Source of the DNA: a virus
Lineage: Duplodnaviria; Heunggongvirae; Uroviricota; Caudoviricetes
Reading direction: 5' to 3' (one strand)
DNA length: 4,104 bases
IMG/VR virus record: IMGVR_UViG_2778261572_000005
Location: 1 to 4,104 of that record
Below, in pieces: positions 1 through 4,104 of this stretch. A program made the position numbers and the translations under genes. A model generated the notes under the pieces. That model was not told where the DNA came from. It worked only from the letters and a program-made list of their open reading frames with translations, and searched no databases. Numbering within the stretch: position 1 is the first letter of the stretch; every line of letters starts with the position of its first letter.

Positions 1-1
1 G

Positions 2-361
2 CACATCAAACGCGTAGGCCGCAATTTCCGGGCGGCTGTCAGGACCATAAAAACGAACGTAACGTTTGAGTGAACCAGAAGCCCGGTATTCGCCGGATAT
101 GTAACACTCGACACCGAAGGCTTTACAGACCAGGTCACACAGGATGTGCATATAACGCGGCGGTGTACTGGCGTCACTCGGCGCACCCGCGCTGGCAGCT
201 TCCTGAATGTCGAACAATTCAGCGTCGTTTTCGCTGATGCCATGCTGGCGCATATAAGCCTGGGCTTTTGCAATAGCGTTAGCGGCTTCTTCCGGGCTTG
301 ATGTCCCTCTGGCAAGGCGTAACAGTTTTTTGATTTTGGCGATGTATTTATTTTTGCTCAT
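2..361 (-). CDS. Partial CDS (N-terminal 120 codons; 3' end lies beyond window position 1), DUF2786-like protein
   Basis: ATG at 361..359 preceded by SD-like GAGGGAG (minus-strand ...GAGGGAGTAGACA-ATG). Hand translation gives MSKNKYIAKIKKLLRLARGTSSPEEAANAIAKAQAYMRQHGISENDAELFDIQEAASAGAPSDASTPPRYMHILCDLVCKAFGVECYISGEYRASGSLKRYVRFYGPDSRPEIAAYAFDV with no stop to the window edge. Not in the ORF track because it is open-ended. The N-terminal K-I-K-K-L-L-x-L-A pattern followed by EEA/AKAQ resembles DUF2786 proteins as I recall them; assignment from memory, not a search. Confidence 0.6.
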   Translation of the reverse strand, partial: MSKNKYIAKIKKLLRLARGTSSPEEAANAIAKAQAYMRQHGISENDAELFDIQEAASAGAPSDASTPPRYMHILCDLVCKAFGVECYISGEYRASGSLKRYVRFYGPDSRPEIAAYAFDV

Positions 362-713
362 TGTCTACTCCCTCTAACAACGTGGTGATGAAATGTCCAG
401 CCATTACTCCGGCATCACGATAAGCGCATCGTGTTTTGCTTTCTGATTGTTTACGCCGGGGAACGGAATAAGCTGATGCAAACATCTCCGCCCTGAATTG
501 CTGCATTGTCAGGACTTTCAATTGCAGGAGACGCTCTTCATCGCTGCATACTGTGCTCATTAATCCATCAAGGATGACATTAAAAGCCCGGTATACCGGG
601 TCATCTTTTGTTCGTTTTGTCAGGGCCACAGCACTGATTATTGACAATGCGCGCTCAAGCTTTTTCAGCTCTGAATTTGGCCATTCAACAGGTGACCAGA
701 CTTTATCTTTCAT
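348..713 (-). CDS. Hypothetical protein, 121 aa from the ATG (MKDKVWSPVEW...); first 6 codons identical to the upstream neighbour
   Basis: ORF track 348..719; the track start is a TTG, but the ATG at 713..711 has a well-spaced SD (AAGGGG, 8 nt upstream), so I call the start there. Stop overlaps the next gene's start by 14 nt (operon-style packing). No recognisable family. Confidence 0.6.
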   Translation of the reverse strand: MKDKVWSPVEWPNSELKKLERALSIISAVALTKRTKDDPVYRAFNVILDGLMSTVCSDEERLLQLKVLTMQQFRAEMFASAYSVPRRKQSESKTRCAYRDAGVMAGHFITTLLEGVDNEQK

Positions 714-763
714 ATACAAATCCCCTTAATTCAGGCGTAAGCCAGCCCCGGCGGGTTTACGCC
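696..763. repeat. 68-bp perfect direct repeat, copy 1 (partner at 1309..1376)
   Basis: CCAGACTTTATCTTTCATATACAAATCCCCTTAATTCAGGCGTAAGCCAGCCCCGGCGGGTTTACGCC is identical at both sites (offset 613 bp), checked base by base. On the minus strand it contains a GC-rich stem, the SD AAGGGG, the ATG and the codons for MKDKVW. Confidence 0.95.
734..763 (-). promoter_or_regulatory. Predicted RNA stem-loop in the 5' leader of the 121-aa gene (7-bp stem GGCGUAA/UUACGCC, GC-rich 16-nt loop), about 20 nt upstream of the SD
   Basis: Minus-strand transcript: GGCGUAA-ACCCGCCGGGGCUGGC-UUACGCC then UGAAUUAAGGGGAUUUGUAU-AUG. The U-rich tract lies 5' of the stem, not 3', so it is not a canonical intrinsic terminator. 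Function inferred, not demonstrated. Confidence 0.35.
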
Positions 764-792
764 ATATACAAATAAAATTAAAAACAGACTTA

Positions 793-1326
793 TTAACTAC
801 GACGTTTAGCTTTCCGGTAATGACGGTCAACAGACTTAACGAACGCCTTCACATCACGGGCAATCAAATCCAGCGGATAATATTCATCCAGCAGTTCCAT
901 TCCGCTGAATCGAATCTGAAAAAAATCAGGCTTATCTTTATATGACTCCATCAGGCCAATAAACCGCAGCTGACGCGGGAGGGATTCCTGCACACCTGAA
1001 ATAGTGAGCAAATCATCTTCAAGGATGTATCCGAGGTTTTCCATACCCTCGCTACATATTCTTGTCAGCATGTTCCGTGTCGCGAGGTACAGTGCCACCG
1101 TGTCATTCGCCATCATGGCGAACAAATCCCCCTGAATATAAGCCCCCTTACTGGCCACAGCATTTCCGGCAATCTGCGCATCAAGTACCACATGCATAAA
1201 ATCGGCAGGTGCTCCCAGATGGCCCAGCAATGATGACGCCCATAACGTTACATTGGTTAACTTCTCAGATGAACGGGTAGCAAAACCTTCAGGAGTAACA
1301 ATAAAATCCCAGACTTTATCTTTCAT
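793..1326 (-). CDS. Hypothetical protein, 177 aa from the ATG (MKDKVWDFIVTPEGF...)
   Basis: ORF track 793..1332; ATG at 1326..1324 with the same SD and leader as the 348..713 gene because both sit inside the 68-bp repeat. Stop TAA at 795..793. The body is unrelated to the downstream paralogous start. No recognisable family. Confidence 0.6.
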   Translation of the reverse strand: MKDKVWDFIVTPEGFATRSSEKLTNVTLWASSLLGHLGAPADFMHVVLDAQIAGNAVASKGAYIQGDLFAMMANDTVALYLATRNMLTRICSEGMENLGYILEDDLLTISGVQESLPRQLRFIGLMESYKDKPDFFQIRFSGMELLDEYYPLDLIARDVKAFVKSVDRHYRKAKRRS

Positions 1327-1376
1327 ATACAAATCCCCTTAATTCAGGCGTAAGCCAGCCCCGGCGGGTTTACGCC
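1309..1376. repeat. 68-bp perfect direct repeat, copy 2 (partner at 696..763)
   Basis: Identical 68-mer; includes the start region of the 177-aa gene. The AT-rich sequence 5' of each copy (minus strand) is also similar but degenerate (GTTTTTAATT in both). Confidence 0.95.
1347..1376 (-). promoter_or_regulatory. Predicted RNA stem-loop in the 5' leader of the 177-aa gene (same element as 734..763)
   Basis: Same sequence as the 734..763 hairpin; sits between the stop of the 63-aa gene (1408) and the SD/ATG at 1326. Confidence 0.35.
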
Positions 1377-1407
1377 TGTTTTAAATAACAATTAAAAACA
1401 AATTAAA

Positions 1408-1599
1408 TTAATGCGGTGCTTTCAGTGTTTCGACTTTTACGAAATAAGGCTCGACATTAATTTCAACCACACAACCACATTTAAAATCTCTGGCTGGCGC
1501 AACAGTTTTCACCACACGACCACAACCAAACACTGCGCTGTCGGTATGTGTAAAACGAGTCCCCACCGGATATAGCTGATTAAAGTTCTTCGCGTTCAT
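1408..1599 (-). CDS. Hypothetical small protein, 63 aa
   Basis: ATG at 1599..1597 preceded by GGAGG (7-nt spacer); stop TAA at 1410..1408. Overlaps the 3' end of the upstream gene by 20 nt. No recognisable family. Confidence 0.5.
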   Translation of the reverse strand: MNAKNFNQLYPVGTRFTHTDSAVFGCGRVVKTVAPARDFKCGCVVEINVEPYFVKVETLKAPH

Positions 1600-1813
1600 G
1601 AGGCGGCCTCCATCCTTTCAGGTGAGCATTGGCACAGAACTGTGCCCGGTGTTCAGCCCAGATGCGGCGCAGGGTGCTACACGGGCTTTGCGCTGCCTTA
1701 CGCCACAGTTTTTCAGCCTCAGCATAATCGCCGCGTTGTTCTGCTCTGGACGCGCCCAGCGAATACGCCGCGCAACTATTTCCGGCTCTGTACTCTTTGA
1801 TATCCTGATGCAT
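1580..1813 (-). CDS. Hypothetical small protein, 77 aa from the internal ATG (MHQDIKEYRAGNS...); weak resemblance to ANR-type small regulators (tentative)
   Basis: The track ORF (1580..1903) begins inside the upstream gene. The ATG at 1813..1811 lies 1 nt after that gene's TAA (TAA-C-ATG) with a GGGG SD about 7 nt upstream, so I call the start there. The W/R/C-containing helical stretch (EKLWRKAAQ...RRIWAEHRAQFC) recalls ANR-family small proteins; low confidence, from memory. Confidence 0.45.
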   Translation of the reverse strand: MHQDIKEYRAGNSCAAYSLGASRAEQRGDYAEAEKLWRKAAQSPCSTLRRIWAEHRAQFCANAHLKGWRPPHEREEL

Positions 1814-1814
1814 G

Positions 1815-2459
1815 TTAAACCCCTGCAATATCCAGCGGGATTGCGCGGTATTCATCAGAATCACCGACGCGCTCATACACGCGGATATAGCTTTTGCTGC
1901 CAATCACCTGGACCGCTTCGCCAATCAGCGTCATGGCGTTATTCCAGCGTTCGTCCTCAATTTCAAGGCGACGCAAGGCCAGAACGCGCCCGGTGTTAAT
2001 GTTGCCTTCCTTGTCCGTGCTGAATGCCTCGCTGATGATGGCTTTGATTTCAGGGCGTGCACCTTCCGTCCAGTCAGCCAGGCAATCATCAATCAGCGAC
2101 TTCGCGGTCTGAATGCGTTCATCAAACGCAATACGGTCCTGCATGGCGCGCTGAATCTTGTAACGCCCGTCAAAGCTGTAAAGCGTGATATTCCCTTTTT
2201 TACCGCCTTTCACAGCGCCGTATTTCTCCGCCGACAGGTCAATAAACGCCTGAATATCACCAAACGCACGCAGTTTCAGTTCACGCAGTGAGGCAGAGGC
2301 AGCAATCACCATCTCCACAAGCTCACCGACCAGCTGCTCACGGTCGCGGTCAATATCTTTGATAAGGCTTTCAGGTGTCATTACGCCACGGGCATCCACC
2401 CAGTAACCTTCAGGCGCTTGAGTTTTCGTGTATTGCTTAACTTTATTTTCAGTCGTCAT
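1815..2459 (-). CDS. DUF3164-family protein (conserved hypothetical of Mu-like transposable phages), 214 aa
   Basis: Complete ORF, ATG at 2459..2457 with GAGG upstream. Motifs GGKKGN, SFDGRY, FDER and RVYER match my recollection of DUF3164 proteins found next to B in Mu-like prophages; not verified by search. Confidence 0.7.
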   Translation of the reverse strand: MTTENKVKQYTKTQAPEGYWVDARGVMTPESLIKDIDRDREQLVGELVEMVIAASASLRELKLRAFGDIQAFIDLSAEKYGAVKGGKKGNITLYSFDGRYKIQRAMQDRIAFDERIQTAKSLIDDCLADWTEGARPEIKAIISEAFSTDKEGNINTGRVLALRRLEIEDERWNNAMTLIGEAVQVIGSKSYIRVYERVGDSDEYRAIPLDIAGV

Positions 2460-2488
2460 AATTAAATTACCTCAGTGATATTTACAGA

Positions 2489-2704
2489 TTAATTTGTGTT
2501 ATGTGCGCGAGGCGCAACGTTTTCAGAAAAAATATTCACGCCGTTGTAGTCATTTCTCAGTGCTTCCTTGATAACATCATGTAATCCTGTTGCCACCTGA
2601 AACTCCCTTTCGGAAGTGCCGTCCTCCAAATAACTTCCTGTAATCTGGGTTAAAACCCTGCCTTTTTCATTGGTATAGATAATTACTTCTAATTTAACCG
2701 CCAT
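2489..2704 (-). CDS. Hypothetical small protein, 71 aa
   Basis: ATG at 2704..2702 with a good SD (AGAGGAA, about 7-nt spacer); stop TAA at 2491..2489. Sequence looks globular (MAVKLEVIIYTNEKGRVLTQITGSY...). No recognisable family. Confidence 0.55.
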   Translation of the reverse strand: MAVKLEVIIYTNEKGRVLTQITGSYLEDGTSEREFQVATGLHDVIKEALRNDYNGVNIFSENVAPRAHNTN

Positions 2705-2716
2705 TCTGATTTCCTC

Positions 2717-2941
2717 TCATTGCCATACGACGGTACAGCCGTCGATACAGGACGTTTTCACCACACGGCGCAGGCCGCTGAATGTCTGGACGATTTCCGT
2801 TACCGGCCATACCGGACCGCCAGCAGGTGGGCAGGCATAAACCACAGGTAAACGGTGATGTTGCCACGTTACACGACCGCCAGTGGTGTGGATGGCCACA
2901 CGGGCACGGGAACGGACGGCGTTAATGGTCTGCTTGTCCAT
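2717..2941 (-). CDS. Hypothetical small protein, about 74 aa (MDKQTINAVRSRARV...); start uncertain (alternative ATG at 2956)
   Basis: The track ORF (2717..3034) begins with a non-ATG start inside the upstream gene's tail. In-frame ATGs at 2956 and 2941; the one at 2941 has GGAG 9 nt upstream. Only long ORF on either strand in this interval. Confidence 0.45.
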   Translation of the reverse strand: MDKQTINAVRSRARVAIHTTGGRVTWQHHRLPVVYACPPAGGPVWPVTEIVQTFSGLRRVVKTSCIDGCTVVWQ

Positions 2942-2955
2942 CGTCTTGTTCTCCA

Positions 2956-2977
2956 TCAGTGAATTAACATTTCTGCG
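2956..2977. repeat. 22-bp perfect direct repeat, copy 1 (partner at 3329..3350); intergenic relic of the B-gene 3' end
   Basis: TCAGTGAATTAACATTTCTGCG at both sites. On the minus strand it reads CGCAGAAATGTTAATTCACTGA, which at 3329..3350 encodes the B C-terminus (A)EMLIH-stop. At 2956..2977 the same frame is closed by a TAA just upstream, so it is non-coding there. Confidence 0.9.
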
Positions 2978-2982
2978 CTGCA

Positions 2983-3315
2983 TTATCTGAGTGCAAACGC
3001 AAGTCGTGGCTGATAACGGGGAAGGCGGGCACACATACGCGCAAGACGATAAGCCCGACGAAATCCCTGTAAATTCTGCTCAAAAGGAATAATCATTAAT
3101 CGCGCACAGCATTCATCAACGTCCCAGTCATCGCTGGTATTTCCGGTTCCATTGATTTCTCTTTCCCGGGAATACAAATCAATGCGCAGTTCACCCGGCA
3201 CGAAGCAATCAACAAACGGAATAATTTCACCAGGGGTCCCATTAGAATAAATACAACCATTACGACTGATATTCCGTAGCGCTTTAATTTCTTTTCTGAC
3301 GACAACCTGTTCCAT
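2983..3315 (-). CDS. Hypothetical protein, 110 aa, immediately downstream of the B-like gene and bracketed by the 22-bp repeats
   Basis: ATG at 3315..3313, 13 nt after the B stop, with AAAGG/AGG upstream. The C-terminal 30 residues are Arg-rich, so the true 3' end is uncertain. A nested 69-aa ORF (3096..3305, TTG start) is an alternative reading. Confidence 0.45.
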   Translation of the reverse strand: MEQVVVRKEIKALRNISRNGCIYSNGTPGEIIPFVDCFVPGELRIDLYSREREINGTGNTSDDWDVDECCARLMIIPFEQNLQGFRRAYRLARMCARLPRYQPRLAFALR

Positions 3316-3328
3316 ACCTGGCCTTTAC

Positions 3329-3350
3329 TCAGTGAATTAACATTTCTGCG
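3329..3350. repeat. 22-bp perfect direct repeat, copy 2 (partner at 2956..2977); overlaps the last 7 codons and stop of the B-like gene
   Basis: Identical 22-mer, offset 373 bp from copy 1. Confidence 0.9.
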
Positions 3351-4093
3351 AATTTATCAATGGCCTGCACACTGACCGGTGCATCGCTGATATCACAAAT
3401 CCGGTACACACCGCGCGCCAGTTTGAACAGGCGGCGGGCATTACCCAGTGAGCGTGCGTAGAGCGCCTCGCTGATTTCCGGTTCTGCTGCTTCCGGCATC
3501 AGCCCGGTAGCTATCTGGTTAAAATCTTCCTGCGACAGCGTATCGCCCAGGTTAAGCGCCAGCGCCACACGGCTGTATAACTGGGCGAACTCACCGCGAC
3601 GTCCCTTGAGGTTAATCAGAAGGCGTGGCATACCCGCCAGGACAATCCCGATACCCGCTTTGTCATGCAGACGGCGCAGAACCTCCAGTGCGCGATAGGG
3701 GAGCAGTTCAGCCTCGTCCACCATCAGCAGGCGACCGGAATCACGCAGTTCTCGCACACATGCATCAATCAGTTCGTGGATATTGCCGCGAACTTTTACC
3801 CCCAGCTGGCGGCACAGCTCCTCAAGCAGTGTTCTGGCTGTATAGCCCGGGTCGGCTTCAATCAGGACCGCATCCCGGTTTCTGCGGGCGTATTCACGCA
3901 GAATCATTGTTTTGCCAAGACCTGCCGCGCCATACAGTACGCAGATTTCACATTCCAGATGAGCATAGGCCAACACCTCCAGTCCTTTGGCAGCCATACC
4001 GGTGGCAACAAATTTCGCTTTAATACGGCGGCTATTTTCCTTTTCCCGCTCACGGGTCACAAAGGCAGAAATGCGTTCTTCAATATCAGCCAT
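3329..4093 (-). CDS. MuB/TniB-like AAA+ ATPase (DNA transposition protein B-like), 254 aa as drawn; 5' end may extend beyond the window
   Basis: Walker A GAAGLGKT (nt 3908..3931) and Walker B LLMVDEAE (nt 3707..3730). Overall pattern resembles Mu B / TniB-type transposition ATPases. ATG at 4093 is preceded by AGGG, but the frame stays open to the window edge at 4104. Confidence 0.85.
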   Translation of the reverse strand: MADIEERISAFVTREREKENSRRIKAKFVATGMAAKGLEVLAYAHLECEICVLYGAAGLGKTMILREYARRNRDAVLIEADPGYTARTLLEELCRQLGVKVRGNIHELIDACVRELRDSGRLLMVDEAELLPYRALEVLRRLHDKAGIGIVLAGMPRLLINLKGRRGEFAQLYSRVALALNLGDTLSQEDFNQIATGLMPEAAEPEISEALYARSLGNARRLFKLARGVYRICDISDAPVSVQAIDKFAEMLIH

Positions 4094-4104
4094 ATCGCCC
4101 TGAT

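Follow-up and report, generated by a model that had tools for sequence, protein, structure and literature searches.

Two orphan cassette genes at a hairpin-marked variable position in the early region of a transposable Escherichia coli prophage

Two adjacent genes in the early region of a transposable prophage

The window analyzed here is a stretch of 4,104 nucleotides (nt) from a Caudoviricetes genome (positions 1 to 4,104 of IMG/VR record IMGVR_UViG_2778261572_000005). Its credible genes, judged from the list of open reading frames (ORFs), all lie on the minus strand. We examined two adjacent genes in this window, which we call P1 (348-713, minus strand, 121 amino acids (aa), stop codon at 348-350) and P2 (793-1326, minus strand, 177 aa), and the position that they occupy. 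Upstream of P2 lies p63 (1408-1599, minus strand), a conserved early gene of 63 aa that matches phrog_5591 and forms the left border of a variable slot. Downstream of P1, the 5' part of a DUF2786/DUF7168 gene (2-361, minus strand) runs off the window and forms the right border of the slot; the end of P1 overlaps the start of this gene by 14 nt. An initial annotation of the window had described P1 and P2 as unclassifiable cargo proteins with a common MKDKVW start, had placed them behind an exchangeable junction in the variable early region of a transposable phage, and had, from context only, suggested them as candidates for host-interaction or counter-defence functions.

In the ORF list, the corresponding minus-strand ORFs begin at TTG codons (348-719 and 793-1332), and we took the ATG codons two codons downstream, at positions 713 and 1326, as the starts. 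The Shine-Dalgarno sequence AAGGGG stands 8 nt ahead of each ATG. DNA identical to positions 300-1420 is present in E. coli TUM1881 and TUM9812. The RefSeq annotation of TUM1881 also uses the ATG starts and lists two hypothetical proteins, WP_089600757.1 and WP_089600755.1, which match the 121-aa and 177-aa ORFs; P2 is in addition represented in PHROGs. The ORF list, the RefSeq match and the analysis of the repeat described below thus agree on two ORFs of the annotated lengths behind the MKDKVW start.

In TUM1881, the region lies inside a complete transposable prophage, in which repressor, Ner-like, transposase and B genes are followed by GemA and Mor and then by lysis and head genes. The early genes from transposase to GemA/Mor are tightly packed on one strand. 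The genes for the B ATPase and the Kil-like, DUF3164 and DUF2786 proteins share a strand in the window, and transposase, GemA and Mor are found in the full prophage, confirming that P1 and P2 lie in the variable early, semi-essential (SE)-type region of a transposable prophage. The DUF3164 protein shares 67-69% identity with BcepMu gp05 and phiE255 gp36; the backbone is therefore BcepMu-like and not that of Mu proper. When the whole window was compared with deposited phages using megablast, no DNA-level match was obtained. The backbone is carried by 58 of 5,426 complete E. coli genomes.

P1 and P2 are coding and under relaxed purifying selection

Six distinct P1 alleles and ten distinct P2 alleles were available as DNA, with protein differences of up to ~20%. 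The reading frames were open in all alleles except one of P2, the remaining insertions and deletions were in frame, and the synonymous divergence (dS) reached ~0.2. The pooled ratio of nonsynonymous to synonymous divergence (dN/dS) was 0.40 for P1 and 0.38 for P2, and a binomial test of the most divergent pairs against neutrality gave p=0.005 (P1) and p=0.0016 (P2). With frames that remain open from allele to allele and a dN/dS significantly below 1, P1 and P2 have the appearance of real genes. We concluded that P1 and P2 are coding and under purifying but relaxed selection.

The relaxation is evident from the neighboring genes. Values of 0.04-0.11 were obtained for core neighbors. In the same loci, the pooled dN/dS of the kil, DUF3164, ANR (AraC negative regulator) family and DUF2786 genes was 0.04-0.09, so that the values for P1 and P2 are about four times as high or more. 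Other small early ORFs were similarly relaxed (0.27 for p63 and 0.47 for a 71-aa gene). Further, several closely related allele pairs of P1 and P2 had a dN/dS at or above 1. The G+C content of P1 and P2 is 45-46%, compared with 52-59% in the B, kil, DUF3164, ANR and DUF2786 genes.

The P1 of the window is a shortened form. Homologues of P1 fall into four clusters, all from E. coli and all 131 aa long, and ten residues (KNAEIKNDNL) present in each of the four are missing from the P1 of the window, which therefore carries an in-frame 10-aa deletion. The deleted form is also found in TUM1881, TUM9812 and one metagenome contig.

Relatives of P1 and P2 are confined to one E. coli prophage lineage

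Neither protein had a match in Pfam, NCBIfam or PADLOC at E≤0.1, PADLOC being a library of defence systems. In the PHROGs scan, residues 1-177 of P2 matched profile positions 1-181 of 181 of phrog_7741 (E=8.6e-108), and P1 had no match. PHROG 7741 is a family of unknown function which, on exhaustive search, is made up of this E. coli prophage protein alone. Sequence and profile searches of the PDB with P1 and P2 returned chance matches to designed helical proteins only. The Kil-like, DUF3164, ANR and DUF2786 matches obtained in the window belong to neighboring genes and not to P1 or P2. Apart from the match of P2 to phrog_7741, both proteins are thus unclassifiable in Pfam, NCBIfam, PADLOC, PHROGs and the PDB, as the initial annotation had it.

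A word-indexed search of 5.8 billion proteins identified the four clusters for P1 and about twenty for P2; about 17 E. coli clusters of P2 have a length of 177-181 aa. Every named member of the clusters matched by P1 or P2 is from E. coli, with identities of 76-99%, and a P1 profile run against the same 5.8 billion proteins found nothing beyond these close relatives. An exhaustive HMMER scan of 1.84 billion representatives with a P2 profile recovered its own cluster and a fragment. It also gave a spurious match to one repetitive, eukaryote-like protein (E=3.7e-4), which was dismissed as due to chance. Thus both proteins are restricted to this E. coli prophage lineage.

Homology to known early proteins of Mu would have spoken against the cargo interpretation. 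When P1 and P2 were compared using tblastn with 50,697 phage records, among which Mu-type phages are expected, no match was obtained, and we found no homology to Mu, BcepMu or other deposited phage proteins. In the literature on DUF3164, DUF2786 and anti-defence genes in Mu-like early regions, we found nothing specific to P1 or P2.

Both proteins are predicted to be soluble, and no transmembrane segment was predicted in either. P1 is predicted to be alpha-helical, with an isoelectric point (pI) of 8.9, and P2 to be all-helical, with a pI of 5.9 and a basic C-terminal tail. AlphaFold2 models built on shallow alignments had a confidence (pLDDT) of 50.3 for P1, with four helices, and of 39.8 for P2, and were unusable; such low values are to be expected from alignments of this kind. 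When the P1 model was compared with the PDB using Foldseek, the best match had an E-value of 1.8, which carries no meaning. The low confidence of both models thus made structural comparison impossible.

These properties bear on the alternative that P1 and P2 are proto-genes, young or decaying, which have little or no function, are kept open mainly by their place behind a ready-made leader in an operon, and hitch-hike with the prophage. Their status as strict orphans, with E. coli relatives only among 5.8 billion clustered proteins and 1.84 billion representatives, would fit such an origin. The same is true of the very low AlphaFold confidence for both, a dN/dS of ~0.4 with several close allele pairs at or above 1, the 10-aa deletion in the P1 of the window, the existence of one frameshifted P2 and one truncated and fused P2, and the presence of P1 in only 2 of 58 carrier genomes. 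However, dN/dS is significantly below 1 for both genes, and the ORFs remain open across alleles that differ by a dS of up to ~0.2, with the remaining insertions and deletions in frame. Further, P2 is retained in about half of the carriers, and the P1 family occurs in 191 blocks of an assembly collection. We consider an origin as proto-genes rather unlikely.

A 68-nt repeat supplies both genes with the same leader

Upstream of P1 and P2 the window contains a direct repeat (696-784 and 1309-1397). Its first 68 nt are identical (696-763 and 1309-1376), with weaker similarity extending to 89 nt; 68 identical nucleotides within 4.1 kb are not due to chance. Read as sense, the identical stretch opens with a 30-nt hairpin GGCGTAAACCCGCCGGGGCTGGCTTACGCC, continues with a 20-nt leader TGAATTAAGGGGATTTGTAT and closes with ATGAAAGATAAAGTCTGG, which codes for MKDKVW. 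All of these elements are on the minus strand. The leader of P2 (1327-1346) and the identical leader of P1 (714-733) each contain TGAAT, the Shine-Dalgarno sequence AAGGGG and the 8-nt spacer. The hairpin, which we call hairpin A, is present in an ancestral copy after p63 (1347-1376) and in a second copy after P2 (734-763), where the 30-nt inverted repeat has a folding energy of -13.9 kcal/mol as RNA. Each hairpin is preceded by an AT-rich 3' tail. The tail of p63 spans 1377-1407; that of P2 (764-792) is specific to the P2 cassette and follows P2 in every locus, whatever gene comes next.

Beyond the first six residues, P1 and P2 are unrelated. In a profile-profile comparison the N-terminal residues alone aligned (probability 1.6%), and blastn and tblastn of P1 against P2 found chance words of 8-11 nt only, in agreement with what had been read from the sequence at the outset. 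A derivation of P1 from P2 in another frame was ruled out, there being no similarity between the genes.

The AAGGGG leader and the MKDK(V/F)W start are common to P1 and P2 alone. Divergent P1 alleles begin MKDKFW, MKDEFW or MKDKDR. When IMG/VR and the JGI metagenomes were searched with the leader pattern, eight contigs were obtained, with P1 or P2 behind the leader each time. The possibility that the MKDKVW leader serves many different cargos was thus ruled out. Since the leader and the six codons stand only before P1 and P2, they are a 5' module of these two genes and not a general exchange junction.

Cassette organization of the slot

When loci carrying the backbone (numbered with the prefix L) were compared, the slot had the order p63-[DUF7448]-[P2]-[P1 or a 60-codon ORF or nothing]-DUF2786, which was invariant across 26 loci. 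Nine states were observed: P1 alone; P2 alone; P2 and P1; DUF7448 and P1; DUF7448, P2 and P1; P2 and the 60-codon ORF; DUF7448, P2 and the 60-codon ORF; the 60-codon ORF alone; and DUF7448 alone. The DUF7448 gene is a third optional cassette and always comes first (L003 3094-3480, L010-L013, L021 and L025). The 60-codon ORF (MNIAKQKKFAREINL...) takes the position of P1 in some prophages (L002 3709-3891, L003 4171-4353 and equivalents). It is of low complexity and left unannotated in some RefSeq records, and may therefore be a non-coding spacer.

Among the 58 complete genomes with the backbone, P2 is present in 28 and P1 in 2. P1 is commoner in draft assemblies, its main cluster accounting for the 191 blocks mentioned above. 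This phyletic survey supports the proposal that P1 and P2 are optional cargo, which prophages otherwise alike may have or lack. P1 occurs alone in L016-L018 and L020, and P2 without P1 in L002-L009; thus each gene is independent of the other. This distribution already contradicts the idea that P1 and P2 form a two-component pair, of the toxin-antitoxin type or an effector with a partner, which works only together. The two genes are adjacent, have a common leader and encode products of opposite net charge in the window (pI 5.9 and 8.9), as might be expected of a pair, but each is found without the other in many prophages, there is no obligate co-occurrence, and 28 complete genomes have P2 while only 2 have P1. 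A pair is hardly credible.

Comparison of the junctions revealed how the cassettes are assembled. Tail and hairpin move together with the gene before them, and the leader, which is gene-specific and comes after a shared TGAAT, moves with the gene behind it. In 18 loci, all cassette borders had a hairpin with TGAAT and a leader behind it. After p63 and P2 it is hairpin A, and after DUF7448 a different hairpin, GGCGCAGGTAAACAGGTCTGCGCC, which has the same GGCG..CGCC ends as hairpin A and is likewise followed by TGAAT. Because these parts travel with different genes, the unit of exchange is leader-ORF-tail-hairpin, with breakpoints at the hairpin and TGAAT. Thus the element common to all cassettes of the slot is the hairpin with TGAAT. 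The exchangeable junction of the initial annotation therefore stands in part: P1 and P2 are optional cassettes whose borders share a hairpin and TGAAT, but the common element is not the MKDKVW leader.

The first codons of the DUF2786 gene vary with the preceding cassette. Behind P1, the gene starts with MSKNK and overlaps the end of P1 by the 14 nt noted above. With the 60-codon ORF upstream, its product starts MKDKYIAK and the gene itself with ATGAAAGATAAA (MKDK...), which is common to the starts of P1 and P2. The constant 14-nt overlap suggests translational coupling. Together with the dependence of the DUF2786 N-terminus on the cassette and the location between B, kil and DUF3164 on one side and DUF2786, GemA and Mor on the other in the early operon, it would suit auxiliary phage housekeeping factors, that is, modulators of transposition, replication or early-to-middle regulation like those of the Mu SE region. 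However, most related prophages lack P1 and P2, as do all 80 loci of other species described below, and neither protein has homology to Mu, BcepMu or other deposited phage proteins. A housekeeping role is therefore unlikely in our view.

Presence or absence between conserved neighbors and a deviant base composition, here a G+C content below that of the backbone, are also features of lysogenic-conversion genes (morons), which would be expressed from the repressed prophage to the benefit of the host. The gene of an ANR-family regulator is found 200 bp upstream and could be cited in the same direction; the family has links to the regulation of host virulence. In contrast, a consensus scan of both strands at 714-792 and 1327-1407 found neither an own promoter nor an own terminator for P1 or P2: nothing resembling a promoter was seen in the two junctions, and nothing resembling a terminator at the hairpins. 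Further, the two genes are tightly packed on the same strand in an early operon, which in Mu is repressed in lysogens (PMC3325207). Taken together, a role as morons is quite improbable.

The slot also differs from an integron. No integrase is annotated in the 19 kb around it, where a Mu-type DDE transposase is the only such enzyme, and by inspection the invariant GGCGTAA/TTACGCC hairpin stems are not attC core sites.

The hairpin marks a hypervariable position in other Enterobacterales

For comparison with the slot, we took 80 loci of other species in which a DUF3164 relative is encoded. None of these loci encodes P1, P2, DUF7448 or the 60-codon ORF (tblastn, E≤0.1). In 21 of the 80, representing 11 other genera of Enterobacterales (Photorhabdus, Xenorhabdus, Buttiauxella, Trabulsiella, Yersinia, Kosakonia, Serratia, Erwinia, Pantoea, Mixta and Phytobacter), the hairpin lies directly 3' of the p63 homologue; the conserved copies are in loci L029-L053, L081 and L108, at about 5.7-6.1 kb. 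In the 30-nt inverted repeat GGCGTAAAC..GCTTACGCC, the basal stem of 7 bp, GGCGTAA/TTACGCC, is invariant. In the hairpin-bearing loci of other genera p63 is only 46-67% identical, and the genes flanking the hairpin have diverged to 46-77% protein identity. Across at least 12 genera, the hairpin has thus changed far less than the genes around it. A search of GTDB representative genomes for the exact hairpin followed by TGAAT found none; the flank differs outside E. coli, and a looser pattern found the hairpin itself.

The ORF that follows the hairpin varies by species. By inspection there are at least a dozen different N-termini, and in three loci the ORF is DUF2786 itself. Thus the hairpin marks a hypervariable position in Enterobacterales prophages. 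In Buttiauxella and Trabulsiella (L033, L039 and L041), the first ORF after the hairpin starts with a CxxC motif (MNILLDSTCPRCE... and MEHLTGSMCPSCE...). In this they may resemble small zinc-finger translational regulators such as Mu Com.

All variants of the hairpin fold, at -11.7 to -18.2 kcal/mol. No credible Rfam family was found; a match to 'Lnt RNA' over the hairpin reached 26 bits, below the threshold of 55. No intrinsic terminator was predicted at the hairpins on either strand, and no sigma-70-like promoter was found at the junctions in a consensus scan. The copy between P2 and P1 has no T run on either strand, which ruled out an intrinsic terminator there. Most base pairs of the hairpin never vary, one double change was found, and shuffle controls were not exceeded; the covariation is thus too sparse to prove an RNA structure. 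All six one-sided changes are G-U compatible on the sense strand and give A-C mismatches on the other strand, which mildly favors a hairpin in the early mRNA. The hairpin may serve as a signal for RNA processing or stability, as a translational operator or as the recombination site itself.

Alternatively, the slot may be a landing pad bounded by stem-loops, in which P1, P2 or both would be effectors of new fold that disable a defence or take over a function of the E. coli host, and the hairpin would be both a recombination site and an RNA signal in the early transcript. Early genes may then be captured or created behind a ready-made translation leader, in an arrangement conserved across Enterobacterales transposable prophages. 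We regard this as a less likely possibility and put it forward tentatively.

Probable role of P1 and P2 and comparison with known systems

We lean, with moderate confidence, towards P1 and P2 being genuine, independent, dispensable cassette genes in a BcepMu-like early region, and likely encoding helical effectors made from the early transcript. Cassettes would be gained and lost by recombination between the repeated hairpin and leader sequences. This may happen through homologous deletion between direct repeats, or excised circles may be inserted, as described for the promoter-early stem-loop (PeSL) cassettes of T4-type phages.

The SE region of Mu is non-essential, and a single long early transcript covers it together with A and B (PMC3325207). 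This analogy and the lack of predicted promoters and terminators at the junctions suggest that P1 and P2 would be transcribed within a long early transcript and made only after infection or induction. The products are modeled as small, soluble, helical cytoplasmic proteins. Small size, solubility, helical structure, fast evolution, restriction to a lineage and optional presence together form the profile of accessory early proteins that bind proteins of the host or of competitors. Each product most likely binds, on its own, a protein of the host or of a competing element during lytic development, in host takeover, counter-defence or exclusion. A counter-defence or host-takeover role is suggested by the genomic context, and the same argument was made for the lineage-restricted accessory ORFs of Pseudomonas plasticity regions (PMC4378225).

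Several observations weigh against P1 and P2 being effectors. Poorly folded or very young proteins would yield the same very low AlphaFold confidence. With pI values of 8.9 and 5.9, neither protein is strongly acidic or like the known DNA-mimic anti-restriction proteins. A protein under strong functional constraint would be expected to have a dN/dS lower than 0.4; together with low G+C and patchy distribution, the value of ~0.4 fits a counter-defence role but any dispensable accessory gene just as well. Further, one P2 allele on an IMG/VR contig is frameshifted (L009 4001-4545), and a 173-aa protein, P0023, consists of the first ~95 residues of P2 fused to the C-terminal part of a DUF1804 late protein. 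The frameshift and the fusion indicate that loss of P2 is tolerated, and the fusion implies a large internal deletion of the prophage.

SE regions of transposable phages are long and poorly conserved and contain small uncharacterised genes (PMC8705779). The slot resembles that of Mu in its position downstream of transposase and B on the early transcript and in its small, non-essential, poorly conserved ORFs, mostly without known function (PMC3325207, PMC8705779), and a Kil-like gene is also present in this prophage. It differs in that P1 and P2 have no similarity to any ORF of the Mu SE region and that the backbone is BcepMu/phiE255-like. In Pseudomonas Mu-like phages, accessory ORFs cluster in fixed plasticity regions of low G+C, and some encode anti-CRISPRs (PMC4378225). 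P1 and P2 share with the plasticity regions of D3112, MP29 and the JBD phages a fixed position, lineage restriction, low G+C and differences between similar phages (PMC4378225). However, the anti-CRISPR region of the Pseudomonas phages is in the head-gene module, whereas P1 and P2 are in the early operon. Flanking sequences of the plasticity regions were not analyzed in that study (PMC4378225), and here the flanks are a defined hairpin and leader.

The closest likeness in anatomy is to PeSL cassettes of T4-type phages, in which repeated stem-loop modules bound optional genes and excised circles occur (PMC2839356, PMC4122927). In both systems the module consists of a stop codon, an AT-rich stretch, a stem-loop, a Shine-Dalgarno sequence and a start codon; it borders optional orphan genes, and insertions and deletions between close relatives start and end there (PMC2839356, PMC4122927). 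Repeated intergenic stem-loops with a Shine-Dalgarno sequence and start codon were indeed found at the indel borders of the slot. Unlike PeSL, which contain a sigma-70 promoter and a terminator stem-loop, the junctions here have neither in the consensus scan. PeSL are known from a virulent T4-type myovirus, and the phage analyzed here is temperate and transposable.

P1 and P2 are thus ordinary cargo of an SE region, two more orphan genes with a tidy cassette anatomy. What the present analysis adds is the evidence of selection, the independence of the cassettes, the corrected identity of the shared junction, and a conserved hairpin that marks a hypervariable slot. If P1 or P2 proved to be a true counter-defence or host-takeover factor, it would represent a new family without recognizable relatives, and the p63-DUF2786 slot of BcepMu-type prophages would be a place to mine for such genes. 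The packaging as leader, ORF, tail and hairpin offers a testable handle on how transposable phages come by accessory genes at fixed positions, which the study of Pseudomonas Mu-like phages had left unanswered (PMC4378225).

Other early genes of the window

Upstream of p63, the window contains further early genes on the minus strand. A gene of the ANR family (1580-1813; NF033650, E=8e-16) overlaps the start of p63 by 20 nt and is thus located within the early operon of a transposable prophage. Regulators of this type are usually discussed in enteric virulence control. The DUF3164 gene (1815-2459) was identified by family scan. In the order of transcription, the 71-aa gene lies between the DUF3164 gene and the gene for the Kil-like protein (2717-2944; phrog_2679). 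The Mu B-type AAA ATPase gene (3329-4093) was recognized in Pfam, PHROGs and NCBIfam scans.

Between the B ATPase gene and kil lies an unassigned ORF of 110 aa (2983-3315, minus strand), which had no family match in four libraries. It is part of an optional 373-bp insert (window 2956-3350) that is flanked on both sides by an exact 22-bp direct repeat. The repeat (2956-2977 and 3329-3350) corresponds to the last seven codons and the stop codon of B, and the 22-mer is single-copy in loci without the 110-aa ORF. As the 110-aa ORF is bordered by a repeat, like P1 and P2, duplicated junctions around optional genes recur in this phage.

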